A program made the translations under genes and the position numbers. A DNA stretch of 64,000 bases from a virus, in IMG/VR virus record IMGVR_UViG_3300027747_004779, positions 64,001 to 128,000 of that record; one strand, written 5' to 3'. The notes under the pieces were generated by a model, which made no database searches, was not told where the DNA came from, and was given only the letters and a program-made list of their open reading frames with translations. Shown in pieces: positions 80-64,000 of this stretch (its first letter is position 1; each line of letters begins with the position of its first letter).

Positions 80-987
80 TATAAAAATCCGTACGGATTG
101 ATATAGCCAAGTCCGTTTTGAAAACTCGTGACTCGGGGTATCGATCCGTTAGATATTCTATTAACCAAATCACCAATAGGCAAGTAAAGATTGTTTTCTA
201 CTGCGTAATTCGAATATGTCCACCGTGTAGTGTATGTAGGCAATTTATCCTCTGCATAATCCATTGATTGCTCAGAAATTTGATAAGGAGTGCAGTTATA
301 GAATGTATAAACTTTTCTAGGTACCATCGATATACCTTGATACGTTTTAGTATATTGCAGTAAAGTCATATTAACTTTCATATTTTTAAGATCTTTTTGA
401 CCAGGGCGATCTCCCGGGCGTGCTGCCATACCAAAATGTGCTCCTAAGATTACCCAAGGTCTAATTACAAAGTCAACAAAAGAAGTATTAGTTTCGCGAA
501 AATCGACAACTAATGTATTATAATCGGGATTTCTTGGACCGCCTAAAATACCTGGTAAAAAGCCTGCATTGTTATTTACTGAAGCAGATCCCGGGGTATA
601 TTCTTCTGCAGGGACTGTAACTTCATGTGCGAATAAACAGCCTATTACTTTTTGCAAAGGGTAGCTTTTAAGTATATTAACGGCAGTACTGATGTCGTAC
701 CCCTTTTTACCACCGTCAGTTCTTTCTAGTCCTTGAATTATACTTGTACGCAATGCCGGAGGATATCTATCTATAACAACAATCCATTGTGTGGTATTAG
801 GAATCGCTGTAAACCATGATTCCATTTGTGTAAGAAAATAATCTCTTACGCTAATAATAGGAACACCGGGTATATTAAACCCAAAAAGATTAGTGACTTG
901 AGGGGCGAATAACGGGTTTGTACCGGTTACAAGGCCTTGAAAATTATTACCTAGACCATTGAGCGCGTCTGTTAATGGATTGTCCAC
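79..987 (-). CDS. Tail-tube-fold protein (gp19/gp54-like tube initiator)
   Basis: Tube-like pattern (VDFRET, YTFYNCTP, TTRWTY); adjacent to tube and sheath; TAAATA 5 nt upstream. Confidence 0.6.
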   Translation of the reverse strand: MDNPLTDALNGLGNNFQGLVTGTNPLFAPQVTNLFGFNIPGVPIISVRDYFLTQMESWFTAIPNTTQWIVVIDRYPPALRTSIIQGLERTDGGKKGYDISTAVNILKSYPLQKVIGCLFAHEVTVPAEEYTPGSASVNNNAGFLPGILGGPRNPDYNTLVVDFRETNTSFVDFVIRPWVILGAHFGMAARPGDRPGQKDLKNMKVNMTLLQYTKTYQGISMVPRKVYTFYNCTPYQISEQSMDYAEDKLPTYTTRWTYSNYAVENNLYLPIGDLVNRISNGSIPRVTSFQNGLGYINPYGFL

Positions 988-1013
988 CTAATTATTTAGG
1001 ACAAATTTACCAA

Positions 1014-1562
1014 TTACGAGGTTTTTCTCCAGTAATGATAGGAGAGAGTAGCAGTAAATTCAACAGTATTTCCAACACCTTCAGCAATTAGATAATTTAA
1101 AGGACCGACATTGCGTACAGAAACACCAACAAGTTGATACTGTGCGGTCTTGTTCATTTGGTTATCAAGCTGTACAAGATCCATTACAGCGGTCTGCTTC
1201 GGGGCGAAATAATTACCAGTTGAGTTTGAATCATTAAAGATATCTGATGACCACTGTTCAAACTTTTGACGAATCTGTGAATTAGCATCAGTATAGAATG
1301 TTAATTCATAAGCTTCACTGTTAGGATACGTAACATTACCAGGTAGGTTAAAATTTAATCCCATATACGGCACAGCAACATTGGTAATTGAACGAGCAGG
1401 TAAGGAAGCCGTCTTAACATAGATAAGATCGTTATTATCAAATGTTACTGTGCTCGCTCCACCGGTATTAATATTCAATACACGGAAGTTAAAATCACGT
1501 GCGAACTCACGTGTAGTTGCTGCTGTGTAAAAGTCTGTAATGAGTTGATTAACGTCTGCCAT
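1014..1562 (-). CDS. Tail tube protein (T4 gp19-like)
   Basis: VKTASLP, VPYMG..PG, IRQKFEQW, EFTATLSYHYW motifs; directly downstream of sheath. Confidence 0.85.
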   Translation of the reverse strand: MADVNQLITDFYTAATTREFARDFNFRVLNINTGGASTVTFDNNDLIYVKTASLPARSITNVAVPYMGLNFNLPGNVTYPNSEAYELTFYTDANSQIRQKFEQWSSDIFNDSNSTGNYFAPKQTAVMDLVQLDNQMNKTAQYQLVGVSVRNVGPLNYLIAEGVGNTVEFTATLSYHYWRKTS

Positions 1563-1577
1563 AAAATTATTTATCTA

Positions 1578-3869
1578 TTACGATACAATCTCCTGGAAGT
1601 TTGTACCAGTTCTTGTCGCATAGAAATTACAGAGGATGTATTCTGCTGATCTTACAGGTTTAATATAGATATCTACAACAATTGTATTGTCGTCGATTAC
1701 AGAAGGTGGATTATTGCGCTCATCGCAAATGAGAAGATAATCGTATATCCCTTGCGTATTCTTAGCATTATCAAATATCGGTGTTAAGCTATTTAGAACC
1801 TGTGTTCTTGTAAAGAGTGTATTAGGCTCAAATACGAAATATTTTACGGTATCTCTTGTTGCTGTCTCGAGATTTAAGAACAGACGGCGAACGTTAATAC
1901 GGTCAAACGCACTTGGCTTCTTCTGTAGAGTCTTTTGACCGAAGATTACAAACCCTTCTGATGGAAAGAACGTTACCGGGTTTAAATTAATCTTATAGAG
2001 GTTATCGCGTTGCTTCTGTTTCGGATAAATTGCAATATCAACAAGACCTGTTATCACACCGCGTGTAAAGCCGGCTGGTGCATACCAAGGTTGGAATGAA
2101 GAATCTGTATTTGCCATTGCGCCTGCAGCAAATCCCGAGAAAGGAACCCATACTTGCTGATTTGAAGCAATATCAGCTACTTTGCCGCAGTTTGCAAACG
2201 TACAAGCATAACTAGTATCAATACCGGCAAACTGATTCTTTAACGGCCAGTATACATTATCTGAGAATGTGTTTGTTGGTATATCTAAAACTTTAATATT
2301 CGCACCTTGTACAAATATGTTTGTAAAAGGATCGGCGAGAAAGATATGATCTTTGCGTGTTTGCGCGAGATTTAAAAACGCGTTAGCAACTGCAGCGTAT
2401 TGTGCAGCTGGTGTTGATACGCTTGAAGAATTCTGAATAGAAAGTGCTTCAACAGCTGCGTCATACGGAACTGTATCATCAAAGTAACCATATGTTGCAA
2501 GATTGAATGAATTAATATAGATTGTACCGAGACCAGCTTCACAGGTAATATTAATCGGATAGAGATCTACGTTATTAAGCTTTTCTGCAGCGCGATTAAC
2601 TTTACCTGGAACATTGCCAATAATTTTTGTAGCGAGATCTTGGTTGTCATATACACCAATGGGGAAGAGTGAAGCGGTAGATCCAAGATCAAAAAGAGCG
2701 GATGAAACATCGAACTGCGGTGCACCAACACGAGCAGTGTATTCAGCATCAGATTCGCCAGCGAGTGGGGTTGCAAGCGCTTGTGTTAAGAAACGAACTT
2801 TCTTTGTCGGTACACCGGAAAGATTAAGCCATGTTGTCTTATTCTTGTTTGAAATATTAGGATTAATTATGGTTGTAATATTAAGCGATGGACGGTCAAC
2901 AATTTCCATAAAAAAGCTAATAGCGGGGCCACCGTTTATACTGTTAATTTGCCTATTAGCATCAAATGAAGCTGTATAACCATCTTGTAAGAGGTAATCG
3001 AGAGCGATTGTATCAGGCGAAAAGACCGACTGGCGAAGTTTAAAAACACCGATTGTGGCAGTATCATCAAATTGATTAGATGAAATATCAAATGTAGGTA
3101 TATTTTCAAGTACTTCAGAAACACTTCCCTGTAGCCCTGTTGCATCAGCTGAAAGTGTAAAATTTAATCTTACATCAGGAATTCTTACATAATCAGTTCC
3201 AAAAATTGATGTTGAATTATTGTTGATTGAATAAACACTGTTAACATCATTAAATGGTGTTGCAGGGTTGAGATTTGTATTATCAATAATTCCAATATAT
3301 GTACCTTCGAACTTGCTGTTTATTGTTGATTGTGCTTTGTTAAGAACAATTAAACCAGCAGCGCTTAATGAAGCAACATTATCAAAGGTCGTTGTGCCGT
3401 ATGTATCATCGGCCCAAGTAAATCCATCGCCCTTCAATATTGAAAGATATTCAGTCTGTGAAAGTTGAATGTGTGTCGGTTCACCAAAGAAATATGTACT
3501 ATCGTCACCGGTTAGATCTGTAGTTAGTGCACCATGGCTATAAGCTTGTACAGGATATACTAATGCACTATATTCATTACTTGTATCAACGCCGAGACCT
3601 TCACCATAAGGTAGTCTATAAACTATTACGCTAGCAGAAGATTGTAGAGCTGCTTTGACAGAATGGTAAAAATATCTCTCTGCTCCATTAGTAGGTATAC
3701 CAAAAATTTGTTCAAATTCAGAAAGCGATGTTACTGTGATAGGTTCAGAAGAAGGTCCTTTAGAAGCGAATCCAGGTATAAATACTGTGGTTGCTGGGGT
3801 TCCTGTACCTCTCAAGGATAAATCTACTTCATTAATCTCGACTCCGGGGCTTTGAATTGTACGTGCCAT
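1578..3869 (-). CDS. Tail sheath protein (T4 gp18-like)
   Basis: SPGVEINEVD N-terminus; PWYAPAGFTRG, GQKTLQ, FDRINVRRLF, FVFEPN motifs. Confidence 0.97.
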   Translation of the reverse strand: MARTIQSPGVEINEVDLSLRGTGTPATTVFIPGFASKGPSSEPITVTSLSEFEQIFGIPTNGAERYFYHSVKAALQSSASVIVYRLPYGEGLGVDTSNEYSALVYPVQAYSHGALTTDLTGDDSTYFFGEPTHIQLSQTEYLSILKGDGFTWADDTYGTTTFDNVASLSAAGLIVLNKAQSTINSKFEGTYIGIIDNTNLNPATPFNDVNSVYSINNNSTSIFGTDYVRIPDVRLNFTLSADATGLQGSVSEVLENIPTFDISSNQFDDTATIGVFKLRQSVFSPDTIALDYLLQDGYTASFDANRQINSINGGPAISFFMEIVDRPSLNITTIINPNISNKNKTTWLNLSGVPTKKVRFLTQALATPLAGESDAEYTARVGAPQFDVSSALFDLGSTASLFPIGVYDNQDLATKIIGNVPGKVNRAAEKLNNVDLYPINITCEAGLGTIYINSFNLATYGYFDDTVPYDAAVEALSIQNSSSVSTPAAQYAAVANAFLNLAQTRKDHIFLADPFTNIFVQGANIKVLDIPTNTFSDNVYWPLKNQFAGIDTSYACTFANCGKVADIASNQQVWVPFSGFAAGAMANTDSSFQPWYAPAGFTRGVITGLVDIAIYPKQKQRDNLYKINLNPVTFFPSEGFVIFGQKTLQKKPSAFDRINVRRLFLNLETATRDTVKYFVFEPNTLFTRTQVLNSLTPIFDNAKNTQGIYDYLLICDERNNPPSVIDDNTIVVDIYIKPVRSAEYILCNFYATRTGTNFQEIVS

Positions 3870-3919
3870 ATAAAGTATTTATGTTTTTTCGGATAAAACT
3901 TTTTGGTTTTTTTGTTTTT

Positions 3920-4528
3920 TTATAGTATATCTACATCTTCAACTAATGAGATTACTAATTGTGAATAGGAAAATGTTACAAAAGATTCAACTTCACCGGA
4001 ATCACGGTGATTAAAGTTAACACCGCCAAGGGTTGTAGGAAATGCATTTAAGTACTTAAACTCTACTGTTCTTTTGTCGTATTCATCTAGAGCAAATATA
4101 GAAAGGTTAGCAGCATATACAAAATTAGCGCTATTATTACTACCTGGAGGGGGCACTAAATTGTCGGCATTAAAGATGTTTAGTTTAACGTCGTTTAAAA
4201 TATTTAACCATTTATATATGACCCAGTAATTATTAAATCTGTTGTCAACATCAAAATTTACAGTTATAGGTGGATACGGTTTTCTTGATTGGCTTGAAGC
4301 GGCTAATGTTTGGCCACCGTATCGTACATCTAAATGCGAAACTTCCATATCTGGTACAACAACACCGTAAACAGAGAACTGTAAAGAGTCAGGAATAATA
4401 TTTCTATTAGCGCGATCGAGCTTAGAAAATATTTCTTTAAGACCGTCAGGAAAATTTAATACGAGTAAAAATTTATCTTTACGCGCTTTATTAAAAGGAC
4501 TCTGTAAAAAATTAGTAGGTGTGGCCAT
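3920..4528 (-). CDS. Tail completion / tube terminator (T4 gp3-like)
   Basis: ITVNFDVD..F.NY..IYKWL and NAFPTTLGG motifs; start moved to 4528, 5 nt after TAAATA. Confidence 0.7.
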   Translation of the reverse strand: MATPTNFLQSPFNKARKDKFLLVLNFPDGLKEIFSKLDRANRNIIPDSLQFSVYGVVVPDMEVSHLDVRYGGQTLAASSQSRKPYPPITVNFDVDNRFNNYWVIYKWLNILNDVKLNIFNADNLVPPPGSNNSANFVYAANLSIFALDEYDKRTVEFKYLNAFPTTLGGVNFNHRDSGEVESFVTFSYSQLVISLVEDVDIL

Positions 4529-4539
4529 ATAGTTATTTA

Positions 4540-6246: not shown

Positions 6247-6266
6247 ATATCTATTAAATACTTAAT

Positions 6267-7163
6267 ATGAACCAGACTAGAACGCTAGTAGAAATGGGTG
6301 ACTTCTATGAAAAGAGTGTCATCGAAGAAAAGAAATCAGTATTCCCCCCTAAGGGTACTTTTAAGAAGGCTGAAGATAAAAAGCCTGTTGAAGCTACTGC
6401 TGATAAAAAAGCGTTCGTCCAAAAAGATTCTGGCCCGGAAAACGCTGACGGCTTTAAGAAAGATCTTATTGATCCTAAGACAGAGAAAAAAGAAAATTTC
6501 TTTGAACCTAAGAAATTCTCACAAAACTATGAAAAAACAGAAGTACAAACAATAAATAATTGTATGAGCAAATCTATTTTTGACAAATTGTATGAGGATG
6601 TAATGTCCGATCAAGCCGTTGACACCGACACCACAGATGCCGCTGCCCTCGGTTTGCCTTCAGTTGACGCTGGAGAAGGTGAAACAAAGGAAGAAGTAAC
6701 ATTAACTCTTCCGCATGATTTAGCTGTTAAGCTTCATGAACTTCTCGCCACTGTAATCGGTGGTGAAGAAACATCCGGAGAAGAAACGGGTGAAGAAGCC
6801 GGTGCTGAAGATAGCGAAATGGCCGCTGCTGAAGGTGCTGATGAAGATAACGAAGAAAAAGAAGAGGATAAGGAAGAAGAAGAAGTAGCAAAAGAAGCTA
6901 CTGAACTTAAGGAAGTTCCTGCCTCAGCCGGTCAAGGCCTTCAGAAGAAGGATAATAAGGTCGGTGATGTAACAAAGAGTTTAGTATCACACGGTGCTGG
7001 TGATGGTAAAGTCACTGACAAATGTGGTAATGATGGTGAAAAAGGCCATGCTCTAGTAGGAAGCGGTGTAAAGGGTGGTGCCTCAACATCGCCTAAGGGC
7101 AAAGCTAACGTAGTTAGCAGCAAGACATCGAAGGTTGGTTCGTATCTCGCTGGTTTAAAATAA
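6267..7163 (+). CDS. Acidic late protein, putative prohead core/internal protein, with a nested second start at 6564
   Basis: Glu-rich centre and Lys/Gly-rich tail; TAAATA before both starts; strong terminator downstream. Confidence 0.55.
   Translation: MNQTRTLVEMGDFYEKSVIEEKKSVFPPKGTFKKAEDKKPVEATADKKAFVQKDSGPENADGFKKDLIDPKTEKKENFFEPKKFSQNYEKTEVQTINNCMSKSIFDKLYEDVMSDQAVDTDTTDAAALGLPSVDAGEGETKEEVTLTLPHDLAVKLHELLATVIGGEETSGEETGEEAGAEDSEMAAAEGADEDNEEKEEDKEEEEVAKEATELKEVPASAGQGLQKKDNKVGDVTKSLVSHGAGDGKVTDKCGNDGEKGHALVGSGVKGGASTSPKGKANVVSSKTSKVGSYLAGLK
6553..6558 (+). promoter_or_regulatory. Intragenic late promoter TAAATA
   Basis: 5 nt before the in-frame ATG at 6564, the same geometry as other late genes. 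Confidence 0.65.
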
Positions 7164-7221: not shown

Positions 7222-7235
7222 GCTTAAATATCTAT

Positions 7236-7562
7236 ATGACGTTTAAGAAATATTATATTGAAAACACTGACATAGGAATGAAGAAGCGTCATATGAATCC
7301 TATAGGTAGAGATGTAAGTTCGCATTCCAAGCATCCTGGTAGATTTGTACCACACATGCACAGAACAATAAAGAAAAATCAGAAAGTAGAAAGCCTATTA
7401 AACAAACCATCAGGTAGAATAGTTTTAAATGTACAGGATATTGCAGAGATTGAAAAGGAGTTTAATCTTAATTTTGATCAGCAAGCGCCTAAAAAGCTTG
7501 GTAATACAGGCATTACTATAAAGTTTGATCCAATACTATATAAGGCTATCTTAGAGAAATAA
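7236..7562 (+). CDS. Hypothetical late protein with capsid-targeting-like leader
   Basis: ORF; TAAATA 5 nt upstream; starts MTFKKYYIE. Confidence 0.7.
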   Translation: MTFKKYYIENTDIGMKKRHMNPIGRDVSSHSKHPGRFVPHMHRTIKKNQKVESLLNKPSGRIVLNVQDIAEIEKEFNLNFDQQAPKKLGNTGITIKFDPILYKAILEK

Positions 7563-9254: not shown

Positions 9255-9669
9255 TTTTAATTTTCTCCAGTAAAGCGGGCTCAATGTTAGTTGCGATTAC
9301 GGGCTCAGTTACAACTGCTGTTTCTGTTGTGGTATGCACGCTTATAGTCTTGCTACATTCCCGGCATTTATAATAATTCGCAGTATTGAATCTAAAAGGT
9401 ACAATATCGGTAACTTGCTTAAAGCAGGGGCACATGACTTCAATACTCTGAAAAGACATTTCTCGCAATTTTTCAACCTCAAGCTTTTTAGCTTTTATTA
9501 TAATGTAAAGGTTGAGTAAGTTTGAATATAAATAAAACCCTAATATTTGTGCGCTAGCACCAATAAAAATACCAACGAAAAAATTTAAATGTATAGTATT
9601 AAAAATAAATCCGCAAAAAAGTGAAACGGATATTAAAGCTAATAGCTGTAGCGCTAACTTTTTAAACAT
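9241..9669 (-). CDS. Membrane protein with two TM helices and a Zn-ribbon-like domain
   Basis: Hydrophobic first ~55 aa; CPC and CREC motifs. Confidence 0.65.
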   Translation of the reverse strand: MFKKLALQLLALISVSLFCGFIFNTIHLNFFVGIFIGASAQILGFYLYSNLLNLYIIIKAKKLEVEKLREMSFQSIEVMCPCFKQVTDIVPFRFNTANYYKCRECSKTISVHTTTETAVVTEPVIATNIEPALLEKIKNAAS

Positions 9670-9689
9670 TATAATATTATAATGACTTC

Positions 9690-10067
9690 TTATTTTTTTG
9701 CAACCGGTTTCTCAGTAGCGTAAAATATTTTTTTTAACTCAACAATAATATTGGAAAGCTTTTCAATGACAGACATGACTTGCTCTTTTGCCGCATCATT
9801 TTCCTGGACAACAGGATTATTAAGTGACGCTTTGAAAAGCATGCGTGCGTTGCAGGCATTAATATATAGATCACCAAGCTGGCCGATAACGTTAGGCAAT
9901 GGATAAGGTAGGGGCTTATCTGCTTTAGCACTATTGGGATCTTGATCTACCGACTTATCAAATAAATCTTTTAAAGTAACTCTTTGAGTTGCAAGCTCTC
10001 TTGAAGCAATACCTGAAGTCCATTTATTGTAGTTTAAAACCTCTTCAAATAAAAGCTTTCGTTTCAC
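9690..10067 (-). CDS. Hypothetical late protein
   Basis: GTG start 5 nt after TAAATA. Confidence 0.7.
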   Translation of the reverse strand: MKRKLLFEEVLNYNKWTSGIASRELATQRVTLKDLFDKSVDQDPNSAKADKPLPYPLPNVIGQLGDLYINACNARMLFKASLNNPVVQENDAAKEQVMSVIEKLSNIIVELKKIFYATEKPVAKK

Positions 10068-10100
10068 TAAAATATTTAATCTATTTCAATAAATAATATT

Positions 10101-11538: not shown

Positions 11539-11574
11539 AGAATAATATTAAAGGAATTACCTGTAATTACAAGC

Positions 11575-53900: not shown

Positions 53901-54699
53901 TTTTACTCAAACATATAAGGGTACGCTACGTTGGTCTCCAGGCAGTGATGGTAAGAATAGAGATTTTTTAATTGATGCACTTTGCCATAATGAAGGAAAG
54001 ATTGAGAGCTACAAATTGCTCGATTTACAGACGTTTAATTTTCATAATATAGATGTTGAACATAGCAAACAATTAGCTAATAAAATTAAAACTGTCTTAC
54101 CATCTTGTGAGTTTTTTGTTTATCAAGATATGAGTCTTGGCAGTACTATATATAAACATCTTAACTTTTTAAAAGAGCGTGGTATGACAGATTTCATCTG
54201 GATACAGGACGATGAATTTTTTACATATAATAATTTTAATGATTTTAGGGATGTTATTAATTTTTACAGAGCACACAATGATATTAAACATATAAACCTA
54301 TTACATAGATTAAATGAGGGTGTACAGAGCGATGCATATTCAAATCATCCTGGAGTTAGACAAGCAGACAATATAAAAATATCTAATAATATAAATTTAA
54401 CTAAAACGCGCGCAAAAGATATTGAGCCTGCGAATAATTATGTAATGGACTTTTCAGCATTTATTTGTGACATTGATTATTTTCTTAATAATATGTTTCA
54501 CGAAACGTTTGCCGAACATCTTGATGCATATAGGCTAGAGGGTGCAGTAAATGAATTATGTCTTAAGAATAATATTCAAAGATGTTTTGTAAATGTTAAT
54601 TTTTTTGAATCATTTAATATTGTCGGCATGCCGCCTTCGCTTGGCAAGAGCGATGTCGCTTTGCAAAAACTTAAAAATTTAGTTAAAAAACCTTCTTGA
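53884..54699 (+). CDS. Glycosyltransferase-like protein
   Basis: WIQDD motif; last gene of the glycan island. Confidence 0.5.
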   Translation: MKRIANFTQTYKGTLRWSPGSDGKNRDFLIDALCHNEGKIESYKLLDLQTFNFHNIDVEHSKQLANKIKTVLPSCEFFVYQDMSLGSTIYKHLNFLKERGMTDFIWIQDDEFFTYNNFNDFRDVINFYRAHNDIKHINLLHRLNEGVQSDAYSNHPGVRQADNIKISNNINLTKTRAKDIEPANNYVMDFSAFICDIDYFLNNMFHETFAEHLDAYRLEGAVNELCLKNNIQRCFVNVNFFESFNIVGMPPSLGKSDVALQKLKNLVKKPS

Positions 54700-54729
54700 A
54701 CTTTAAAGAATTGACGTTATTATATTAAT

Positions 54730-55317
54730 ATGATTTTAAACGATGTTAAATGCTACGACGGTAAACTTCTTCATTCTAGATTCGCTTACAAATATTTCCG
54801 TGAAAGGACACTCCCCATTGGTAATATAATTGCATTTCGCGCGCCAATGAAAGTAGAGGCTGAAGGGATGATTGATAGTGAAGATGTCCTTAACAACGAC
54901 TACATTTACAGCGATGATGCAATTAATTTTCTTTGGGAGATTCCTAACCTTGATCCCTTTGGCGCTGTCGCTTGGCAGCGTCTTTTTAATACTCAAATTG
55001 CACAAATTCTTAGTACGAGATATCTTGAAACGCCCATTGAAGTCGATGGAGACGATTTGATTGTACATAAAGAGCATATGCAAGCTGGTATTGCGCAACC
55101 TAAAGGTAAGTGTAGCGTGAGCATTACATATTCCTCAAATAATGTTGCTCTTGGTCATACAGGTATTAATATTACGGCTGGTAAAAAAGCGCCTGCGTTT
55201 GCTTATTCAACCAATCTTTCAAATGAGCAAGCAATTGCTTTCATGAAAGATATCGTAGAGTTGTTCTATAAAATGAATGATGATATTTTTATCGCGACGT
55301 CAAAAGTTATTTGTTAA
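54730..55317 (+). CDS. DUF366-family protein (biotin/lipoate ligase-like fold)
   Basis: YDG..LH..FAY, IIAFR.PM.V, D.ED, GDDL, K.SVSI and H.GINI motifs. Confidence 0.75.
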   Translation: MILNDVKCYDGKLLHSRFAYKYFRERTLPIGNIIAFRAPMKVEAEGMIDSEDVLNNDYIYSDDAINFLWEIPNLDPFGAVAWQRLFNTQIAQILSTRYLETPIEVDGDDLIVHKEHMQAGIAQPKGKCSVSITYSSNNVALGHTGINITAGKKAPAFAYSTNLSNEQAIAFMKDIVELFYKMNDDIFIATSKVIC

Positions 55318-55688
55318 TGACAATATTTGATTTTATTTCAAATATTGCTTATACAAAAAATAAAAACTGTCTTAATACTGTAGATGAAGAATCAGAGTTT
55401 CAGCCTTTTTTGGTTAATCGCTGGCTTAGTATGTATTCTCCGTCTATGGCTAAACTTTCGAACACTTTAAACAAATATATAGGTATATTTGAATCTAAGA
55501 AAGATCTCTTTTCATTATTTTGTGCAACCTTTCCTAAAGTACCGGCTAAAAAAATAACATATTTTAAGAAAAATAAAGAGCAAAAAAACGCTCAAGATGA
55601 AGAGATCGTAACACAAATATCAAAAAATATAGAGCTGTCTAAAAGAGAGATTCGTAATTATATCTTTGAACTAAATAAAAAAGATTGA
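55317..55688 (+). CDS. Clamp loader small subunit (gp62-like)
   Basis: IFDFI and FQPFLVNRWLSM motifs. Confidence 0.75.
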   Translation: MTIFDFISNIAYTKNKNCLNTVDEESEFQPFLVNRWLSMYSPSMAKLSNTLNKYIGIFESKKDLFSLFCATFPKVPAKKITYFKKNKEQKNAQDEEIVTQISKNIELSKREIRNYIFELNKKD

Positions 55689-55717
55689 TTAAATAGCCAG
55701 ATTAATTAAATTACTTT

Positions 55718-56179
55718 ATGCCTATAGATATAGATGTTTTGCCAACACAAAAAAGCTTGTTAGATTTATCAGAATTACCTAAAAATACATTCAATTCAGT
55801 GTTTTATGGTTATAACCTTAAAGCTCTTTTAGATGATATTCTCTTAGTACAATATATGGATGAAACCTCAGATGGTACATCTATTGTACGCAATGGTATT
55901 GTTATACCAATTAACGCAGATACAAAAGCGTGGAGAATTGGTGAAGTGGTTTTGTGTGGGCCCAATGCCAAATATGTTAAGAAAGGCGACTATGTTTGTT
56001 TTCCAAACAATTTAGGTGTGCCTGTTGCTAACTTAGATATTGATGGTTTTGGTACTCTAAAGAAAGGGCTGTTCTTAAACGAGCAGCGTATTTTTGGTAT
56101 TTGTTCTTTAAGAAAAGACGATGAAAGTGTCGCTTCCCACATTAAAAAATCTTCTTCTAAGCAACGTGGCGGAAATTAA
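55718..56179 (+). CDS. GroES-like co-chaperonin
   Basis: GIVIP, GEVVLCGP..VKKGD.V and LNEQRIFG motifs. Confidence 0.8.
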   Translation: MPIDIDVLPTQKSLLDLSELPKNTFNSVFYGYNLKALLDDILLVQYMDETSDGTSIVRNGIVIPINADTKAWRIGEVVLCGPNAKYVKKGDYVCFPNNLGVPVANLDIDGFGTLKKGLFLNEQRIFGICSLRKDDESVASHIKKSSSKQRGGN

Positions 56180-56842: not shown

Positions 56843-56871
56843 TTTTTGTTTTTATAGTATATAATTAACAC

Positions 56872-58503
56872 GTGTTTAGCAGATATCTTTCGCATTTTCC
56901 AAGAGAGTATGAACCGAGTAATCAGCAAGTCAAACTTATTCGTGGCGTTGAGCGCGCGTTCAATAACGGAAAAAAATTTGTAATTTGTTGCGCTCCAACT
57001 GGGACAGGCAAAAGTTTTCTTGCTAAGACATTATCCGGGTTAGGTTCAAAGCCAAATACAACATTTGTTAACAGTATTGAGAGCTATGCAGCTTATAAAC
57101 AAGACTTTGCCGGTAATTATATTAATGAAGTTGATTGTTTGTCACAGCCACCATTTGGGACATTTGCTCTGACAATTACCAAATCACTGCAAGATCAATA
57201 TTTAAAGCTCTTTCCAGATACAGACATCCTTAAAGGTAAATCGAATTATATTTGTGATGTTGATCAAAATTTTGATGTTGAAACCGCACCGTGTGTATTA
57301 GTTTCAAAAATACGTGATGAGTGTTGGGAAAAAAACCGATGTCCTTATTATAATGCGCGTAACACATCACTCCTTTCAAATTTTTCTGTTTTAAATTATA
57401 AGATGTTTCTTGCATTACCAAATCATGTAAAGCGCAAAAATTTTATTATTTGTGACGAAGCTTCAGAATTAGAAGACGAGCTGGTTAAACGGTTTTCAGC
57501 TGAAGTTACCTATGACCGCTTGAAGCAGTATGGTATTAGCTTTAGCTCGCTTATTACCGATAATAAAGATAAAACAAGAGCGTGGATTTATGATTTAGTT
57601 TTTAACGTTAGTGAACAAATTAATACTTTAATTAACCGGGTAAATAAAAAACAACGAACTCTTTCGCAGCCTGAAAAGATAAAATTACAGTATCTAAAAA
57701 ACTTACACAATTCATTGACAACCGTTGACGGCCTTTGGAAGGATTGCGAATTTATTATTGATAAAGACAGCAAAAGGGTAACTTTTACTCCGCTAAAAGC
57801 TGATAGACTTACAAAATTTATTTTTGATTATGCTGAAAATGTATTGTTAATGTCAGCTACAATTATTGATCATAAGAATTTCGCAAAAACACTAGGCATT
57901 AAAGATTATGAATATGTAGAGGTTGAGAGCGATTTTGACCCTGCTAAATCGCCTATATACGTGTCATCAAAGCATAAGTTAAATTATAAAAACCTAACAA
58001 ATGTTCTGCCCGATATTTGCGAACAAATAAAAACAATTATTGAGTATCATAAGAACGATAAAGGTATTATTCATACACATTCGCGAGATATAACAAATTT
58101 TCTTAAAACGAAACTATCTAATAATAAACGATTCTTGTTTAGGGACGATCTAGCAAATAATGAGGAGATTCTTAAACAGCATTATGAAGCTGACTTTCCA
58201 ACGATTCTAGTTTCCCCCTCTCTGTCTTTTGGTGTCGATTTAAAAGACGATCTAGCAAGATTTCAGATTATTATTAAACTTCCATTCCCTCCTTTATCAT
58301 CAAAGCGTATTAAAAAATTATTTGAAACAGATAAAGATTGGTATGAAAATAAGATGTTAAATTCATTAGTACAAGCATGTGGCCGAGCGACTCGTAGTAA
58401 AAATGACTTTTCAACTACTTATATACTTGATGGTAATATAGTTAATTCGCTTAAACGTACAAAAGATAAGTTACCCAAATCTTTTATAGAGCGCATTTGC
58501 TAA
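56872..58503 (+). CDS. DinG/XPD-family helicase
   Basis: APTGTGKS, four-Cys Fe-S region, DEAS, MSAT, KLPFP and QACGRATR motifs. Confidence 0.9.
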   Translation: MFSRYLSHFPREYEPSNQQVKLIRGVERAFNNGKKFVICCAPTGTGKSFLAKTLSGLGSKPNTTFVNSIESYAAYKQDFAGNYINEVDCLSQPPFGTFALTITKSLQDQYLKLFPDTDILKGKSNYICDVDQNFDVETAPCVLVSKIRDECWEKNRCPYYNARNTSLLSNFSVLNYKMFLALPNHVKRKNFIICDEASELEDELVKRFSAEVTYDRLKQYGISFSSLITDNKDKTRAWIYDLVFNVSEQINTLINRVNKKQRTLSQPEKIKLQYLKNLHNSLTTVDGLWKDCEFIIDKDSKRVTFTPLKADRLTKFIFDYAENVLLMSATIIDHKNFAKTLGIKDYEYVEVESDFDPAKSPIYVSSKHKLNYKNLTNVLPDICEQIKTIIEYHKNDKGIIHTHSRDITNFLKTKLSNNKRFLFRDDLANNEEILKQHYEADFPTILVSPSLSFGVDLKDDLARFQIIIKLPFPPLSSKRIKKLFETDKDWYENKMLNSLVQACGRATRSKNDFSTTYILDGNIVNSLKRTKDKLPKSFIERIC

Positions 58504-58514
58504 TAAATATTATA

Positions 58515-59330
58515 GTGAAACTCGAGACCTTTCATTTTGAGATTAAAGACCTTATAACACAGTTTGTAGCTGCGTTTGATGATATTATTATAAAAAGGTA
58601 TGATAAAAACCGTGTACCGCAAAATAAAGTACAAGTAAGATATGTTTATGCTCCCAAAGAGCGGGTTTTATATGATCTAGTTAACAAAGCACAAAATCTC
58701 ACAGTACCTGTAGTTGCTGTCAGTATAACAAATGTAGCTCGCGATGAAGATCGCGTTTTTAATAAAAATAGCGGGTTTTATCTAACAAGAGGACCTACAG
58801 ATAATTCAATAAGCTCTACATCACAATATTACAGAACACCAGTACCAGTTAATATAGGCGTCTCCATGTCTATTATAACAAAATTTCAATCAGATATGGA
58901 TCAAATTATTTCAAATTTTGTTCCATACAATAATCCTTATATTATTCTTTCTTGGCAGATTCCAAGTACAGTTGTACCAAGCGGGTTTGATCTTCCACAA
59001 GAAATACGAAGCGAAGTTTTATGGGATGGTGGAATCAATCTTTCTTATCCAATTGATATTCAGGCGAACGAAAAATATCGTCTTATTGGCGATACATCTT
59101 TTATAGTAAAAGGCTGGTTATTCCCATATATGCAACAGCCCGTTGGAAACATATATTTTATTAATAATAACTTTAATTCATCATCAATTATTACTGATTA
59201 TGACGCGCTTACTGGTAATACATATACATATCCAACTAGCACAAACCTTGTAAGCGATACAGAAACTGTATCAATTTCTGGAATTCCACAATTTACCAAT
59301 GTTGACTATACTACATCGCTCAATCAATAA
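58515..59330 (+). CDS. Tail terminator / sheath stabiliser (T4 gp15-like)
   Basis: F...FDDI, V.Y.YAPKE, PVP.NI, DMDQII and KGWLF; GTG start 5 nt after TAAATA. Confidence 0.88.
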   Translation: MKLETFHFEIKDLITQFVAAFDDIIIKRYDKNRVPQNKVQVRYVYAPKERVLYDLVNKAQNLTVPVVAVSITNVARDEDRVFNKNSGFYLTRGPTDNSISSTSQYYRTPVPVNIGVSMSIITKFQSDMDQIISNFVPYNNPYIILSWQIPSTVVPSGFDLPQEIRSEVLWDGGINLSYPIDIQANEKYRLIGDTSFIVKGWLFPYMQQPVGNIYFINNNFNSSSIITDYDALTGNTYTYPTSTNLVSDTETVSISGIPQFTNVDYTTSLNQ

Positions 59331-59385
59331 AGTTAATATTTATAGTTTAAGTTTAGAATAGAGCACATAAATATAATAAAACAAT

Positions 59386-61191
59386 ATGGCAAACCAGGAT
59401 TCAAATAGAGAAAGTACATTCGGCAGAGACTTAATGAAGTTTGTTTCTTCGAAATTACCCTATCAGTCTCTTAATATTGAAGATAAGATTAACTCGCTTA
59501 ATCCAAAGTACGAGGAATTCTTTGATAAAGGTACAAAACGCGAAGAAGCATTGTCCAGACAATCGATTTCTTCATCGCTAGCTTTCACAGATGATTTATA
59601 TGCCAATGTAATTCAGAATAAAGATTATCATAACTACATGTATGCAAACTTGCAGCCTGATAAAGGTCGCAGGTTAATGGATTATAGAGTAATGGCGGCT
59701 TTCTCTGAAGTTGCAGATGCATTAGATGAAATATGCGATGAATTTATTAACAAGGATGATAACGGTGAAATTGTTAAACTAAGACTAAAAACAGATGCGC
59801 TTTCTGAAGAGCAGAAAGAAAAGCTTAAAAAAGAATTTCAAAAGTATATTAGTTACTTTGACCTTGAAAATAAAGGTTGGGAGTACTTGAGACAGCTCTT
59901 AGTTGATTCTGAGTTATACTTTGAACATATTGTTCATAAGAAATATCCTCAAGAAGGTATTCTTGGTGTTGTTGCTATTCCACCCGACCTTATTGACCCA
60001 ATCTTTGAAAATGTACAAAACCAGATTGTAAGAGGTTATTTGTTGCGTAAAAATATTTACGATGCTAAGAACCCTGGCAAAGTATCAAAAGTCGAGCTCG
60101 TACCGATGGATGTTAATCAAGTTACATACATTAATTCAGGCATATGGAATGAGTCAAAGACAGTTAGACTTCCGTTCATAGAAAATGCTAGAAGAGCTTA
60201 CAGACAGCTATCACTTATTGAAGATGCGATCGTAATTTATCGTTTAGTCCGTGCACCAGAGCGTTTGGTTTTTAACGTAGATGTAGGTAATATGCCCCCA
60301 CCTAAGGCAGAAGCATATCTACGCAAATTAATGACAAATTACTGGTCAAAAAGAACTTATGATGCTGATCAAGGTGCATCAGTACAGAAATTTAATCCAC
60401 AATCAATGCTCGATAGCTTTTGGTTTGCAAAACGCGCTGGTAGTGAGGGTACAACAGTTACCCAGTTGCCTGGCGGTGCTAATCTTGGTGAACTTACCGA
60501 TCTAATGTATTTTGTACAAAAGCTCTACAAGTCGCTTAAAGTACCAGTAACACGTCTCAATGTTGAGGATGTATTTAAAGATGGAACAGACATTCTTCGC
60601 GAAGAGCTAAAATTTGCACGATTTATTATTCGACAACAGCAGCGCTTTGCTTCCGGACTTAAGAACGGTTTTGTTACACATCTCAAGCTAAAAAAGTTTT
60701 GGGAAGAATATAAACTTAAAGAAGCAGAAATTGATATTACGCTTAATGTACCAACAAACTTTTATGAGCTTAGAGAAAATCAGAAGTTCCAGCTTAAAGC
60801 AGAAAACTTTAATTCTATTACACAAAGCGATCTTGTTTCTAAAACATATGCACAGAAAAAATATCTTGGCTGGACAGATACCGATCTTATGGCTAATAGA
60901 GAGTTTTTAAGAAAAGACAGAGAACTACTTTGGGAGTTAGATCAAATTACAAATGGTGGACCAAATTGGAGAGAGCAAGGCGCTGTAGCGCCTGGTCAAG
61001 GGCCTGAAGCAGGAGCCGGAGGAGCAGGAGGCGGTACAGCAGGTGGTGGAGGATCAAGATTACCACCAGAATTTGGCCCTGGGCCTGGTGGTGCTGGTGG
61101 AGAAGCAGGCGCAGCTACGCCAGCAGCTGGTGGAGGTACGACTTCTAATAGTGCAGCTGCGGGAGGCGAAACCGCTACTCCCGCGGCATAA
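59386..61191 (+). CDS. Portal protein (T4 gp20-like)
   Basis: EDAIVIYRLVRAPER, DVGNMPPPKAE, LPGG.NLGE and REELKF motifs. Confidence 0.97.
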   Translation: MANQDSNRESTFGRDLMKFVSSKLPYQSLNIEDKINSLNPKYEEFFDKGTKREEALSRQSISSSLAFTDDLYANVIQNKDYHNYMYANLQPDKGRRLMDYRVMAAFSEVADALDEICDEFINKDDNGEIVKLRLKTDALSEEQKEKLKKEFQKYISYFDLENKGWEYLRQLLVDSELYFEHIVHKKYPQEGILGVVAIPPDLIDPIFENVQNQIVRGYLLRKNIYDAKNPGKVSKVELVPMDVNQVTYINSGIWNESKTVRLPFIENARRAYRQLSLIEDAIVIYRLVRAPERLVFNVDVGNMPPPKAEAYLRKLMTNYWSKRTYDADQGASVQKFNPQSMLDSFWFAKRAGSEGTTVTQLPGGANLGELTDLMYFVQKLYKSLKVPVTRLNVEDVFKDGTDILREELKFARFIIRQQQRFASGLKNGFVTHLKLKKFWEEYKLKEAEIDITLNVPTNFYELRENQKFQLKAENFNSITQSDLVSKTYAQKKYLGWTDTDLMANREFLRKDRELLWELDQITNGGPNWREQGAVAPGQGPEAGAGGAGGGTAGGGGSRLPPEFGPGPGGAGGEAGAATPAAGGGTTSNSAAAGGETATPAA

Positions 61192-61217
61192 CCCGCTAAA
61201 TTAATTAAATAATAGTT

Positions 61218-63302
61218 ATGGCTGTATATTATCCATCTTTTGATAATTACAGACGCGCACAAATTCGTCAAAAACAACTCTTACACACTGATTATAAAAC
61301 AGTTATACAAGAAGGTATTGGTGTAGGGGCTATTCCAGCAGTAAACACTTCGCCTACACCAACGCCTACCCAAACAATAACGCCTTCATTAACTCCTTCA
61401 TTAACTAACACACAAACACCGACATTAACACCCACTATTACGCAAACAATAACACCAACAACAACACAAACAGCTACACCTTCTGAGACGCCCACGAATA
61501 CACCAACACAAACACCTACGTTGACTCTTACACAAACACCCACTGTAACCAAGACATCTACTATAACACCGACACAAACGCCCACAGTAACACCAACAAT
61601 AACCCAAACACCAACCATTACACCAAATTTGGTAACGGTATATTATTATTCCGATTCTACAACATCTTTCAGCATGGATACTACATTAACAAGTACAAGT
61701 CGCGATACTAATAAAACTCTGATTGCAGTTAATATTGGGAGTGTAGTAACTAGTATTGGTACTGCTTTTGTTAATTGTACAGAGCTTACTGATATTATTA
61801 TTCCTAGCAATGTGACTATTATTGAGTATGGTGCATTCCAAGGCTGTACCGGTCTAACTAGTGTTACCATTCCTAGCAGTGTGACGGCCATTGGGTCTTA
61901 TATGTTTTTTTATTGCACTAACTTAGTTAGTGTATATTTCTTAGGCGATGCTCCTACTGGGGGATTTGGAGCGTTTGAAGGTACAACGTGCACAGTGTAT
62001 TATTGTTCAGATAAAGTTAACTTTACCAACCCATTCCTAGACCGGCCTGCGGTCGCTATTACATGTGGCATTAATACACGTACACCTACCCCAACACCTA
62101 CTTCAACACCAACACCTACACAGACTCTTACTCCCTCAATAGGGTCATCACCTACTCCTACAAATACACTTACACAGACACCAACACCGTCAGTTACACC
62201 CACTATTACTCAAACACCGACAAATACACCTACACAGACACAGACCTCCTCTGTAACACCAACACAAACACCTTCAGTCACACAAACCACCACAGTAACA
62301 CCTACCAATACCATATCGCCTACACCAACCAACACTTCGACATTAACCCCTACACCCACACAGACACCTACTCTAACAGTTACACCCTCTGTAACGCCTA
62401 CGAATACACAAACATCGACCAATACACCAACCAATACACCTACAGTAACACCTACTGTCACAGTAACCAACACGCCTACTATGACATTAACACCAACCAC
62501 TCCACCATATACTATTAGTTATCTCATAGTAGCGGGCGGAGGAGGAGGCTCAAACGGTGGAGGCGGTGGCGGGGCAGGCGGTGTATTAACATCATCCATA
62601 CAAGTCTATCCTAATGCAGCATATAGTTTTGTAGTTGGAGCTAGCGCTATAGGTAGAACCGATGGTTCAAATATTCTCGATAGTGTAGGAAAAAATAGTA
62701 TAGCATTTGGCTTAACAGCAATTGGTGGAGGCACATCATATGGTGTGTTAAACGCAGCAATTAGCGGCGGTAGCGGATCTGGATCTGAAATGTATAATAC
62801 CATCCAAGGTCAGGGAACATTAGGACAAGGAAACAGTGGCGGTGATGGTGGATATACTGGTGGCGGGGGTGGAGCAGGTGCACCAGGAGGATGGAGCATA
62901 GGGTTTTCACAACCAGGCGGTAATGGAGGTATAGGTATAATTAACCCTATAGCAGGTTCAACAGTGGGTCAGCTTTCTGCAGGTAATTATTGGATTGGTG
63001 GTGGTGGAGGTGGTGGGTGTAATAATAACAACATTGGAGGTAAAGGTGGCCTAGGTGGTGGCGGCGTAGGTAAAGCAGACAATACTAAGGGTGGCAATGG
63101 TCTTGCAAACACCGGTGGTGGTGGAGGTGGTACATCAGGTTATTCCGGAAGCCCGGGTGGCGGTAATGGTGGATCAGGTGCTATAGTTTTGTCTATACCT
63201 ACTTCACGCTATACAGGTATTTTTACAGGAGCACCACAAGTACTTACATATGGTTCAAATACAATTTTACAGTATTTGACATCCGGAAGCTACACAGCAT
63301 AA
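61218..63302 (+). CDS. Mucin-like Pro/Thr stalk protein with BspA-type LRR and Gly-rich terminal domain (virion surface protein)
   Basis: Two long TPT/TQT tracts; IP.SVT.I...AF..C..L repeats; YLIVAGGGGG...GGSG domain; late promoter. Confidence 0.85.
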   Translation: MAVYYPSFDNYRRAQIRQKQLLHTDYKTVIQEGIGVGAIPAVNTSPTPTPTQTITPSLTPSLTNTQTPTLTPTITQTITPTTTQTATPSETPTNTPTQTPTLTLTQTPTVTKTSTITPTQTPTVTPTITQTPTITPNLVTVYYYSDSTTSFSMDTTLTSTSRDTNKTLIAVNIGSVVTSIGTAFVNCTELTDIIIPSNVTIIEYGAFQGCTGLTSVTIPSSVTAIGSYMFFYCTNLVSVYFLGDAPTGGFGAFEGTTCTVYYCSDKVNFTNPFLDRPAVAITCGINTRTPTPTPTSTPTPTQTLTPSIGSSPTPTNTLTQTPTPSVTPTITQTPTNTPTQTQTSSVTPTQTPSVTQTTTVTPTNTISPTPTNTSTLTPTPTQTPTLTVTPSVTPTNTQTSTNTPTNTPTVTPTVTVTNTPTMTLTPTTPPYTISYLIVAGGGGGSNGGGGGGAGGVLTSSIQVYPNAAYSFVVGASAIGRTDGSNILDSVGKNSIAFGLTAIGGGTSYGVLNAAISGGSGSGSEMYNTIQGQGTLGQGNSGGDGGYTGGGGGAGAPGGWSIGFSQPGGNGGIGIINPIAGSTVGQLSAGNYWIGGGGGGGCNNNNIGGKGGLGGGGVGKADNTKGGNGLANTGGGGGGTSGYSGSPGGGNGGSGAIVLSIPTSRYTGIFTGAPQVLTYGSNTILQYLTSGSYTA
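61350..61626 (+). repeat. Degenerate Pro/Thr-coding repeat tract 1
   Basis: ACA/CCA-rich imperfect repeats. Confidence 0.85.
62081..62506 (+). repeat. Degenerate Pro/Thr-coding repeat tract 2
   Basis: ACA/CCA-rich imperfect repeats. Confidence 0.85.
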
Positions 63303-63352
63303 TATTATAACTCTAGTTGTATATTTTAACGATAATAAATTAAATAATATAT

Positions 63353-64000
63353 ATGGACTGTTCTGCAATTACACCTATAACAGCGTTTCAAAGCACTAAT
63401 CTTAATAGTAAGATAGATACATTTTCACGCCTTGGAGATAGAATTACACGTAGCCTTGGCGCGCCATTAATTAATCTGGAACTGCATCATGATCAATTAT
63501 TTGAAAATATTTCTATAGCTTGTGAGATGTTTGCAAGATATGCAGGATATACAGAAGAAATTTTAGTTTTTGATTCCAATTTATATGTAGACGGTAAGGG
63601 AATTAAGATGGATGAGTTGTTTAGTATTACCCCGTTTTTTAATAAAACGATTACACCATCTAAAACAGTTTACGCTGCAACATCATCAATTACTAGTAGT
63701 GTCTTTACCTCGTCAACTACACTATCAAGCATATATTCCGACGGCATCTTTAACAATCAAATCTTAACTACATCAAGCTATCTTAGCGTAATTAATTTTA
63801 ACGGTACATTAGCACAATATTTTAGTCCATCATCTAATAGTCAAGAGAAGTTCGTTAATAGTTTTGACTATGATATAATGGATTATAGAAAAGTAATCGA
63901 TGTTATTGACTTCGAAGAAGGAAGCTCTGACGGTGTTAATACCTTGTTTACTATTGAACAAACACTAGCACAGCAAACATATTTTAGCTATGCGATGGGT
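63353..64000 (+). CDS. Neck protein (T4 gp13-like), partial
   Basis: Translated by hand: MDCSAITP...RSLGAPLINLELHHDQL; open to the window end; TAAATA 6 nt upstream. Confidence 0.85.
   Translation, partial: MDCSAITPITAFQSTNLNSKIDTFSRLGDRITRSLGAPLINLELHHDQLFENISIACEMFARYAGYTEEILVFDSNLYVDGKGIKMDELFSITPFFNKTITPSKTVYAATSSITSSVFTSSTTLSSIYSDGIFNNQILTTSSYLSVINFNGTLAQYFSPSSNSQEKFVNSFDYDIMDYRKVIDVIDFEEGSSDGVNTLFTIEQTLAQQTYFSYAMG

Follow-up and report, generated by a model that had tools for sequence, protein, structure and literature searches.

Introduction

In the Thermus phages phiYS40 and Lalka27a, the first nucleotide of most transcripts is the A or G of the initiator codon (bioRxiv 10.64898/2026.04.20.719267), and in Deinococcus-Thermus, the phylum of their hosts, a -10 element beside the open reading frame (ORF) is common natively (PMC12340547). 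Because of these precedents, the kind of arrangement that we report here is already known. For leaderless translation, mycobacteria require an ATG or GTG at the 5' end of the message, which is also sufficient, and do not use TTG (PMC4633059), and the cI mRNA that phage lambda makes from PRM also starts at AUG, its translation being sensitive to the state of the ribosome around uS2 and bS21 (PMC10491246). In phage T4, the late promoter TATAAATA lies between positions -13 and -6, counted from the transcription start (PMC1524935). Here we analyzed a 64,000-nucleotide (nt) window, bases 64,001-128,000 of the 157,857-bp IMG/VR virus record IMGVR_UViG_3300027747_004779, in which a T4-type late motif, TAAATA, and a second, sigma-70-type motif lie at a short and nearly constant distance from start codons. 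We conclude that most first-cistron messages of this virus probably begin at or within approximately 3 nt of the start codon and would be read without a leader. Coordinates refer to the window unless they are marked as genome, which stands for the whole record.

The likeness to the Thermus phages lies in leaderless middle and late transcripts, shown experimentally there, and in -10-dominated, class-specific promoters. However, the Thermus phages are unrelated to this virus and use other promoter motifs, and phiYS40 has no TAAATA register but is enriched in Shine-Dalgarno (SD) motifs. In lambda, the AUG-initial mRNA belongs to one regulatory gene of an otherwise SD-led phage, whereas here the arrangement would be the default for both temporal classes of genes. 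Full-text literature searches returned no report of a leaderless arrangement for T4-like phages, gp55 promoters or cyanophages. What is new here is a T4-type programme of early and late promoters that is fused to start codons, in a clade without SD enrichment.

Results

The late-type motif TAAATA has a fixed register with start codons

ORFs were called over the whole record by a rule that is blind to the motif, taking greedy longest ORFs with the start at the first ATG, GTG or TTG after an in-frame stop, which gave 180 genes. The gap was defined as the number of bases between the end of the motif and the start codon. TAAATA was found at a gap of 5 nt in 26 genes and of 6 nt in 15, while all other bins from 0 to 47 held three genes or fewer. 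The motif is otherwise avoided: with 270 copies on both strands of the genome it is the rarest among the 15 permutations of its letters, and the window holds 91 copies compared to 158 ± 11 in dinucleotide shuffles. At positions -40 to -1, however, it is the most frequent of the 15 permutations (70 copies), and the peaks of other permutations near starts are only frame-shifted overlaps of TAAATA. The same register appeared without any gene calls, as an ATG follows the 270 copies at a gap of 5 in 30 cases and of 6 in 17, with 2-10 in the other bins. Thus, the positional enrichment over the AT-rich background, on which the sequence-only reading of this window had staked its proposal, is present as a peak at gaps 5-6 in the spacing histogram despite the overall depletion. 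All 21 TAAATA sites listed in that reading lie on the strand given for them, each 5-7 nt before an in-frame ATG or GTG, and three further sites near starts were found in the window at 11761, 13470 and 32437.

Alignment of 47 units on TAAATA gave the consensus a/t-TAAATA-a-T, with T at +2 in 38 of the 47 and A-rich positions at -1 and -2. Since no column further upstream is conserved, the late-type units have no -35 element. With the first-ATG rule, 50 of the 180 genes were assigned to the late type, 21 had a -35 plus a -10 element and 12 had a -10 element only. The gap across in-register late units was 5 nt in 28 and 6 nt in 15, and the base at -1 was T in 34 of 50, i.e. a pyrimidine-purine start site. 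The start codons next to promoters were ATG in 75 cases, GTG in 8 and TTG in none, which parallels the mycobacterial leaderless starts. A strong conserved -35 box, as in the second motif class of this phage, is not typical of mycobacterial promoters. About one quarter of transcripts is leaderless in mycobacteria, whereas about three quarters of first cistrons fit here. One TAAATA, at 17053-17058 on the minus strand, is out of this register, 14 nt before the TTG start of a 97-amino-acid ORF (16745-17038) that shares a 4-nt overlap with the gene of a ribosomal protein bS21 homologue.

A sigma-70-type motif precedes a second set of genes

The second class, TTGAT[T/A]-N16/17-TAnnnT, ends 5-8 nt (mode 6) before approximately 21 further starts. 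The looser pattern TTGANN-N16/17-TANNNT matches the genome 138 times on both strands; 13 matches end 5-7 nt before a called start, compared to a chance expectation of about 0.24 (138 x 3 x 180 / 315,714), and only 2 end 12-60 nt before one. The -35 box is highly uniform, TTGAT[T/A]. The gap is 6 nt in 11 units, and 5, 7 and 8 nt in 3-4 units each. All seven genes for which this motif had been proposed (sliding clamp, gp32, gp41, folE, queD, DUF366 and the deaminase) carry it. For gp32, the start of the longest ORF, a TTG at 15895 on the minus strand, is part of the -35 box TTGATT of its own promoter, and the true start is the ATG at 15859. Several further "TTG starts" in the genome are the same -35-box artefact, a trap for gene callers.

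The units and the genes discussed below are the following.

985..998, minus strand: late-type TAAATA-N5-GTG, start 987, 302-amino-acid gene
1560..1573, minus strand: late-type TAAATA-N5-ATG, start 1562, tail tube
3867..3881, minus strand: late-type TAAATA-N6-ATG, start 3869, tail sheath
4526..4539, minus strand: late-type TAAATA-N5-ATG, start 4528, second tail-tube-like gene
6255..6269, plus strand: late-type TAAATA-N6-ATG, start 6267, 20 bp from the divergent terminase start 6246, which has TTAATA-N5-ATG
7225..7238, plus strand: late-type TAAATA-N5-ATG, start 7236
9667..9703, minus strand: sigma-70-type TTGCAA-N16-TATAAT-N6-ATG, start 9669
10065..10103, both strands: back-to-back late-type pair in a 33-bp spacer, TAAATA-N5-GTG (minus, start 10067) and TAAATA-N5-ATG (plus, start 10101)
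11536..11572, minus strand: sigma-70-type TTGTAA-N16-TAATAT-N6-GTG, start 11538, primase; GTG and both boxes kept in relatives
11752..11766, minus strand: late-type TAAATA-N6-ATG, start 11754
11951..11964, minus strand: late-type TAAATA-N5-ATG, start 11953; kept in relatives
13116..13130, minus strand: -10-only TAAAAT-N6-GTG, start 13118, RmlD-like reductase
13464..13475, minus strand: late-type TAAATA-N3-ATG, start 13466; off-mode spacing, kept in relatives
13817..14583, minus strand: sliding clamp (gp45 equivalent, 243 amino acids, gene 13817-14548), TTGATT-N16-TATTAT-N7-ATG
15011..15895, minus strand: gp32 (Pfam gp32), TTGATT-N16-TATCAT-N8-ATG
16533..16748, minus strand: phage bS21 homologue, 71 amino acids, Pfam PF01165
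17071..18430, minus strand: gp41 helicase, TTGATA-N16-TATTAT-N6-ATG
19811..19826, plus strand: late-type TAAATA-N7-ATG, start 19824
22547..22561, minus strand: -10-only TATACT-N6-ATG, start 22549, UvsX recombinase
22949..22985, minus strand: sigma-70-type TTGATT-N16-TAAATT-N6-ATG, start 22951
26839..26876, minus strand: sigma-70-type TTGATT-N17-TAATAT-N6-ATG, start 26841, glycosyltransferase-like
29729..30340, minus strand: gp55-family late sigma factor gene
32135..32173, minus strand: sigma-70-type TTGATT-N16-TATTAT-N8-ATG, start 32137
32437..32449, plus strand: late-type TAAATA-N4-ATG, start 32447
32853..32889, plus strand: sigma-70-type TTGATT-N17-CATAAT-N5-ATG, start 32887
33456..33469, plus strand: late-type TAAATA-N5-ATG, start 33467, first of a four-gene coupled operon
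37533..37546, minus strand: late-type TAAATA-N5-ATG, start 37535
37949..37999, both strands: 45-bp divergent spacer, TTGATT-N17-TAACAT-N5-ATG (minus, deaminase, 37951) and TAAATA-N5-ATG (plus, 37997)
39040..39093, both strands: 48-bp divergent spacer, TTGATC-N16-TATAAT-N7-ATG (minus, folE, 39042) and TAAATA-N5-GTG (plus, 39091)
40136..40149, plus strand: late-type TAAATA-N5-ATG, start 40147
40574..40611, plus strand: sigma-70-type TTGATA-N17-TATAAT-N6-ATG, start 40609, queD
42141..42198, both strands: 52-bp divergent spacer, TAAATA-N7-ATG (minus, phoH, 42143) and a -10-like AATAAT-N5-ATG or TATAAT-N8-ATG (plus, epimerase, 42196)
43145..43161, plus strand: TTGATT-N15-TATAAT-N8-ATG, start 43159, queE; spacer one below the rule used
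43865..43900, plus strand: sigma-70-type TTGTAA-N16-TAAAGT-N5-ATG, start 43898, kinase-like
44632..44645, plus strand: late-type TAAATA-N5-ATG, start 44643
46275..46313, both strands: 29-bp divergent spacer, TAAATA-N6-ATG (minus, 46281) and TTGCCA-N16-TAATAT-N8-ATG (plus, 46311)
54696..54732, plus strand: sigma-70-type TTGAAC-N16-TATTAT-N6-ATG, start 54730, DUF366
55685..55720, plus strand: sigma-70-type TTGATT-N16-TAAATT-N5-ATG, start 55718
56860..56874, plus strand: -10 unit TATAAT-N6-GTG, start 56872, UvsW-like helicase
58504..58517, plus strand: late-type TAAATA-N5-GTG, start 58515, tail sheath stabiliser
59368..59388, plus strand: portal start 59386 (gene 59386-61191), with TAAATA 12 nt and an overlapping TATAAT 8 nt upstream
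61206..61220, plus strand: late-type TAAATA-N6-ATG, start 61218
63341..63355, plus strand: late-type TAAATA-N6-ATG, start 63353

Divergent start codons are 20, 26, 29, 33, 35, 36, 38, 45, 48, 51 and 52 bp apart (range 20-69 bp), usually with one -10 element facing each way, and are therefore so close that there is no room for conventional leaders. Between 32000 and 47000, the type changes between late and sigma-70 at nearly every gene, frequently with units standing back to back in 26-52-bp spacers, so early and late genes are interleaved there rather than grouped.

Motif class corresponds to gene function

The late type stands before the tail tube, the sheath, the second tube-like gene and the sheath stabiliser, plus many genes without an annotated function. 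The sigma-70 type precedes the clamp, gp32, gp41, primase, UvsX, the UvsW-like helicase, folE, queD, queE, DUF366, the deaminase, the epimerase and kinase-like genes. As the two classes follow gene function, they are better explained as promoters at the DNA level than as a translation signal.

The late class has the features of a T4-type late promoter, with a -10-only element, (T/A)ATAAATA, that lacks a -35 box and is placed before virion genes, and with a gp55-family sigma factor and a sliding clamp encoded by the same virus. The gp55 homologue matches T4 gp55 with an E value of 3.2e-9 and 41% identity, and the PHROGs family phrog_234, "late sigma transcription factor", at 1.4e-26. The divergence of the clamp puts it beyond the Pfam gp45 models, and BLAST, PHROGs and a PDB sequence search gave no match either. 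An AlphaFold model built from 24 homologues (pLDDT 90) reached a TM score of approximately 0.7 to PCNA chains in a fold search, and the 243-amino-acid protein is thus modelled as a two-domain PCNA-like sliding clamp. Its homologues, as called by other pipelines, are almost all 243-244 amino acids long.

The 71-amino-acid bS21 homologue scored 31.2 bits against Pfam PF01165 (cut-off 27), in agreement with a weak PHROG match. Its gene is located in the replication cluster between gp41 and gp32. The nearest protein-atlas clusters contain viral bS21 only, and close copies occur in 8 related IMG/VR contigs. The C-terminus of the protein is aromatic (KWKFYN).

Shine-Dalgarno motifs are not enriched and internal genes are coupled

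SD motifs were scored as the duplex energy with the anti-SD sequence at positions -20 to -3, with a threshold of -5 kcal/mol. They were detected at 10% of starts compared to about 8-9% at random positions, and by class at 0 of 47 late-type, 1 of 17 early-type and 0 of 11 -10-only genes. The same script gave 45% versus 7% at random positions for T4, 45% versus 6% for the Pelagibacter phage HTVC008M, 42% versus 11% for phiYS40 and 31% versus 12% for Syn9, whereas 34 loci related to our record showed 7.7% versus 7.9%. The scarcity of SD motifs noticed in the sequence-only reading is thus borne out genome-wide. The late motif of T4 and Syn9 was located 13-74 nt from starts and never 5-6 nt, with 13-30 nt being the distance to the starts in T4. 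The architecture described here, with its 5-6-nt spacing and no SD enrichment, therefore departs from the norm of T4 and the cyanophages. Strong SD motifs (GGAGG, GAGGT, AGAGGA, AGGAGGT) do occur at a few genes, at 19092-19682 (minus strand), 48475, 51383 and genome 157,261-157,443, the last ones within the final 800 bp of the record beside a tRNA-Met. From these few genes, the host ribosome can probably use SD motifs.

In-register promoters were found for 83 of the 180 genes (46%). Among uncoupled genes they were present in 73 of 99 genome-wide and in 37 of 46 in the window (approximately 74-80%), a count that includes late variants with one mismatch (TAAGTA and TTAATA, for example); the ORF caller itself produced several of the exceptions as artefacts. 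The description of the architecture as near-universal was therefore overstated, as the rest are mostly internal cistrons coupled by stop and start codons. Coupled genes make up 80 of the 180, and 60 of these 80 have no such motif. The predicted ATGA/TAATG-type coupling is present among the motif-less genes: with the first-start rule, 68 coupled genes lack the motif, and their distance to the upstream stop is -4 (ATGA) in 19, -1 in 9 and +1 to +3 in 20. Judged by these distances, the arrangement appears to be that of termination-reinitiation.

At the DNA polymerase gene (22989-25577, minus strand) a TATAAT is located 9 nt upstream, and the gap of the portal gene varies between 5 and 12 nt among relatives. 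The messages of these two genes should have leaders of a few nucleotides, with 2-7 nt predicted.

The virus belongs to a large uncultured clade

The genome has a G+C content of 36% and an estimated completeness of approximately 74%; IMG/VR labels the record "provirus". The window encodes a T4-type portal (Pfam Portal_T4 at 1e-104), a tail sheath, a large terminase and a DnaB-like helicase, and a DNA polymerase with about 31% identity to its counterparts in T4-like cyano- and vibriophages. Judged by the portal, HTVC008M is the nearest cultured phage, with 32% identity, and megablast of 20 kb against a phage collection gave no nucleotide-level relative. IMG/VR contains 368 portal relatives, the best 80 of which are 74-99% identical. 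By its gene content the virus thus appears to be a distant T4-like myovirus, and the many IMG/VR relatives together with the lack of any in the phage collection place it in a large uncultured clade. Portal and bS21 scans of 185,579 GTDB genomes turned up no relative. Upstream of the 180 starts, the Bacteroidetes -7 element TAnnTTTG has no copy within the nearest 10 nt and 4 copies in nt 10-19, close to the expected 1.4 per bin, and the placement of TAnnTTTG before genes that marks SD-independent expression of the Bacteroidetes type is thus not seen. An Rfam search of the window found no family. Outside the window, genes for tRNA-Met(CAT) occur twice, at genome 14018-14094 and 157490-157564, and those for tRNA-Glu and tRNA-Thr lie at genome 6.7-7.5 kb. 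The first tRNA-Met has a mismatched 1:72 pair, which is initiator-like, but its anticodon stem is without the three G-C pairs.

Motif boxes and register are conserved in relatives

The blind ORF caller applied to the 34 related IMG/VR loci found TAAATA 5 nt before the start in 79 genes and 6 nt before it in 34, and the early-class gap again had its mode at 6. For the late gene at 63353, TAAATA was retained at a gap of 5-7 in 51 of 56 distinct upstream regions of orthologues, and for its neighbour at a gap of 5-6 in 39 of 42; the DNA flanking these late-gene orthologues cannot be aligned. The unit of the sheath stabiliser is retained in nearly all of the 28 relatives listed. In two relatives (L005 and L021), the first in-frame ATG precedes the aligned start and follows TAAATA by 7 and 6 nt, respectively, and the register is thereby kept.

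Similarly, a -10-like hexamer lies at a gap of 5-7 in 34 of 38 distinct upstream regions of DUF366 orthologues, and the register of the UvsW-like helicase is retained in 49 of 50, with a GTG start in 44. At protein identities of 60-95%, the orthologues of the gp32, gp41, clamp and primase genes retain the TTGAT[T/A] and TAnnnT boxes while the spacers and discriminators have diverged, and the primase keeps its GTG start. This is the signature of sigma-70-type promoters, two conserved boxes 16-18 bp apart with a diverging spacer. Because the boxes are conserved while the spacers diverge, these results indicate that the motifs are promoters at the DNA level. A GCTTTAA-like box approximately 18 bp upstream of the TATAAT of the UvsW-like gene (56820-56874, plus strand) is also conserved in most relatives (L007-L039). 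It resembles the T4 MotA box TGCTTtA, a reading that was dropped as the box does not recur before other genes.

A cultured phage shows the late-gene half of the pattern

HTVC008M has ATAAATAG-N4-ATG, the same 5-nt register, at the GenBank starts of about 10-12 mostly virion genes, among them the genes for the tape measure, DNA end protector, head closure, tail tube cap and wedge. Examples in NC_020484 are 6267-6282, 18914-18929 (minus strand) and 49747-49762, and these sites look like an undescribed class of late promoters. The prediction of late promoters in pelagimyophages, HTVC008M included, was reported as unsuccessful (PMC7029224). The difference from our virus is that only a minority of HTVC008M genes fit, SD motifs are retained and no early-class register was seen. 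HTVC008M also encodes bS21 (PMC9723584).

Discussion

Transcription from sigma-70 promoters usually starts about 7 nt after the -10 hexamer, within a range of 6-9 nt, and the modal early gap of 6 nt thus puts the start site on the A of ATG. The rule of the T4 late promoter leaves five bases between the motif and +1, so the modal late gap of 5 nt leads to the same nucleotide. The restriction of promoter-adjacent starts to ATG and GTG fits both initiation at a purine and the RTG rule for leaderless mRNAs. A -10 element that ends 5-8 nt before the start, no SD motif and a purine-first start codon are the marks of a leaderless mRNA, and all three are present. We infer the 5' ends of the transcripts and the mode of ribosome recruitment from promoter geometry and conservation, and the leaderless reading applies to first cistrons. 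The proposal made from sequence alone, that these mRNAs begin at or next to the AUG, therefore stands as far as geometry, class split, gp55, lack of SD motifs, purine starts and conservation carry it, and overreaches in its near-universal scope and in taking gene-autonomous promoters as the reason for the scrambled gene order, of which the sequence shows the alternation of unit types between 32000 and 47000.

According to the model that we favor, early and replication genes would be transcribed from host sigma-70-type promoters, TTGAT[T/A]-N16/17-TAnnnT, and late and virion genes from the -10-only promoter (A/T)TAAATA(a)T read by the phage gp55-family sigma factor, presumably with help from the phage sliding clamp. 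In both classes RNA polymerase would start at the A or G of ATG or GTG, or 1-3 nt upstream. A ribosome with initiator tRNA would then bind the 5'-terminal AUG or GUG of the first cistron, downstream cistrons would be reached by termination-reinitiation at overlapping or abutting stop and start codons, and SD pairing would have almost no part in the process.

Several observations weigh against this model. A generic sigma-70 consensus scan found 80 sites in 18 kb compared to 77 in shuffles, i.e. no enrichment, and individual weak -10-only calls may consequently be chance; the evidential signal is the position, the specific TTGAT[T/A] box and the conservation, not promoter-likeness itself. The gp33 co-activator was not detected with a Syn9 gp33 query, in a 158-kb record that is about 74% complete and for a protein that is small and divergent. 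Promoter-adjacent genes do not differ from other genes by weaker folding of their first 35 nt. Gaps of 7-8 nt, as well as those of the portal (8-12 nt) and the DNA polymerase (9 nt), would imply leaders of 1-7 nt rather than none. Eleven late motifs lie within 10 nt of the end of the upstream gene, and read-through RNA would carry them internally. Finally, Escherichia coli translates leaderless mRNAs, especially those with 5'-GUG, poorly (PMC4633059), so the scheme needs a host ribosome, or one modified by the phage, that handles such mRNAs well.

Genome compaction could create the same picture if the in-register promoters were real but a by-product, with protein made mainly from read-through polycistronic RNAs that offer AU-rich, SD-independent landing sites, UAAAUA included, and with leaderless translation as a minor route. 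In addition to the 11 late motifs, 6 early or -10-only ones lie within 10 nt of an upstream gene on the same strand; terminator-like sites are few and not enriched (13 versus 9.3), and 80 of the 180 genes, being coupled, must start internally without SD motifs anyway. We nevertheless consider this explanation unlikely, since 39 of the 50 late units, like most of the early ones, come after a change of strand or are separated by more than 10 nt from the preceding gene, read-through cannot serve divergent pairs, the 5-6-nt spacing is tighter than compaction alone predicts, and T4 is equally compact yet keeps 13-30-nt leaders with SD motifs. It is less probable still that TAAATA and TAnnnT act in the RNA as a non-SD initiation signal, such as an A/U-rich enhancer to which ribosomal protein S1 or a phage factor binds, with transcription starting further upstream. 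In favor of this reading, the motif is rich in A and U and occupies the usual place of a ribosome-binding site, the absence of SD motifs could require another signal, and the phage bS21 homologue could alter mRNA selection. However, a translation signal should not form two classes that track early and late function, and the conservation of a -35 box at a distance of 16-17 bp, across a spacer that diverges freely, is a signature at the DNA level. The late motif also matches the T4 gp55 promoter in a virus that encodes gp55, and 60 of the 80 coupled internal genes do without the motif.

Mis-called start codons, with the true starts downstream behind ordinary leaders, would be a very improbable source of the pattern. 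The first-start rule did take several TTGs of -35 boxes as starts, yet the starts were called blind to the motif, with an in-frame stop a median of 3-7 codons upstream, and protein profiles begin near the N-termini (queE 7 vs 12, queD 3 vs 6, epimerase 1, kinase 1 vs 4). The lengths given to clamp homologues by other pipelines, orthologue start codons that are conserved or in register with the promoter, and the shared register of GenBank starts in HTVC008M also argue against mis-calling. Chance in AT-rich intergenic DNA has next to no probability left: a G+C content of 36% and generic -10/-35 matches as frequent as in shuffles would favor it, but it is refuted by a motif that is depleted genome-wide yet concentrated in two adjacent bins, by the lack of a comparable peak for the other 14 permutations except frame-shifted copies, and by the absence of such a pattern from T4, Syn9 and phiYS40, whose G+C content is similar or lower.

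The bS21 homologue suggests a further possibility. The protein bS21 supports the anti-SD region, and ribosomes without bS21 ease the passage of a leaderless mRNA (PMC10491246); for phage bS21, a proposed effect is to make initiation favor the messages of the phage (PMC9723584). The virus might thus impose a leaderless, SD-blind regime in which its own bS21 replaces that of the host at the anti-SD platform, the genome of the clade having been rebuilt around this switch. Ribosomes would then favor 5'-AUG/GUG and re-initiating phage messages over SD-led host messages, and promoters of both classes would have been fused to start codons, and SD motifs purged, across a widespread clade. We regard this extension of the leaderless model as speculative and rather doubtful. 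The virus does provide a concrete setting for the debated role of phage-encoded bS21.

In this clade, SD-based gene callers will misplace starts, as illustrated by a 252-amino-acid call for a protein of 243 amino acids in relatives and by the TTGs of -35 boxes. The prediction is open to a bench test, because cultured HTVC008M shows the late-gene half of the pattern. If the leaderless reading is true, TAAATA-N5-ATG would be a complete 14-bp expression signal, and host ribosomes must translate 5'-AUG and 5'-GUG messages efficiently, unlike those of E. coli. Among T4-like lineages, that of this virus and its relatives would then be the first to have start codons fused with promoters of both classes, the gp55-type late and the host-type early ones.

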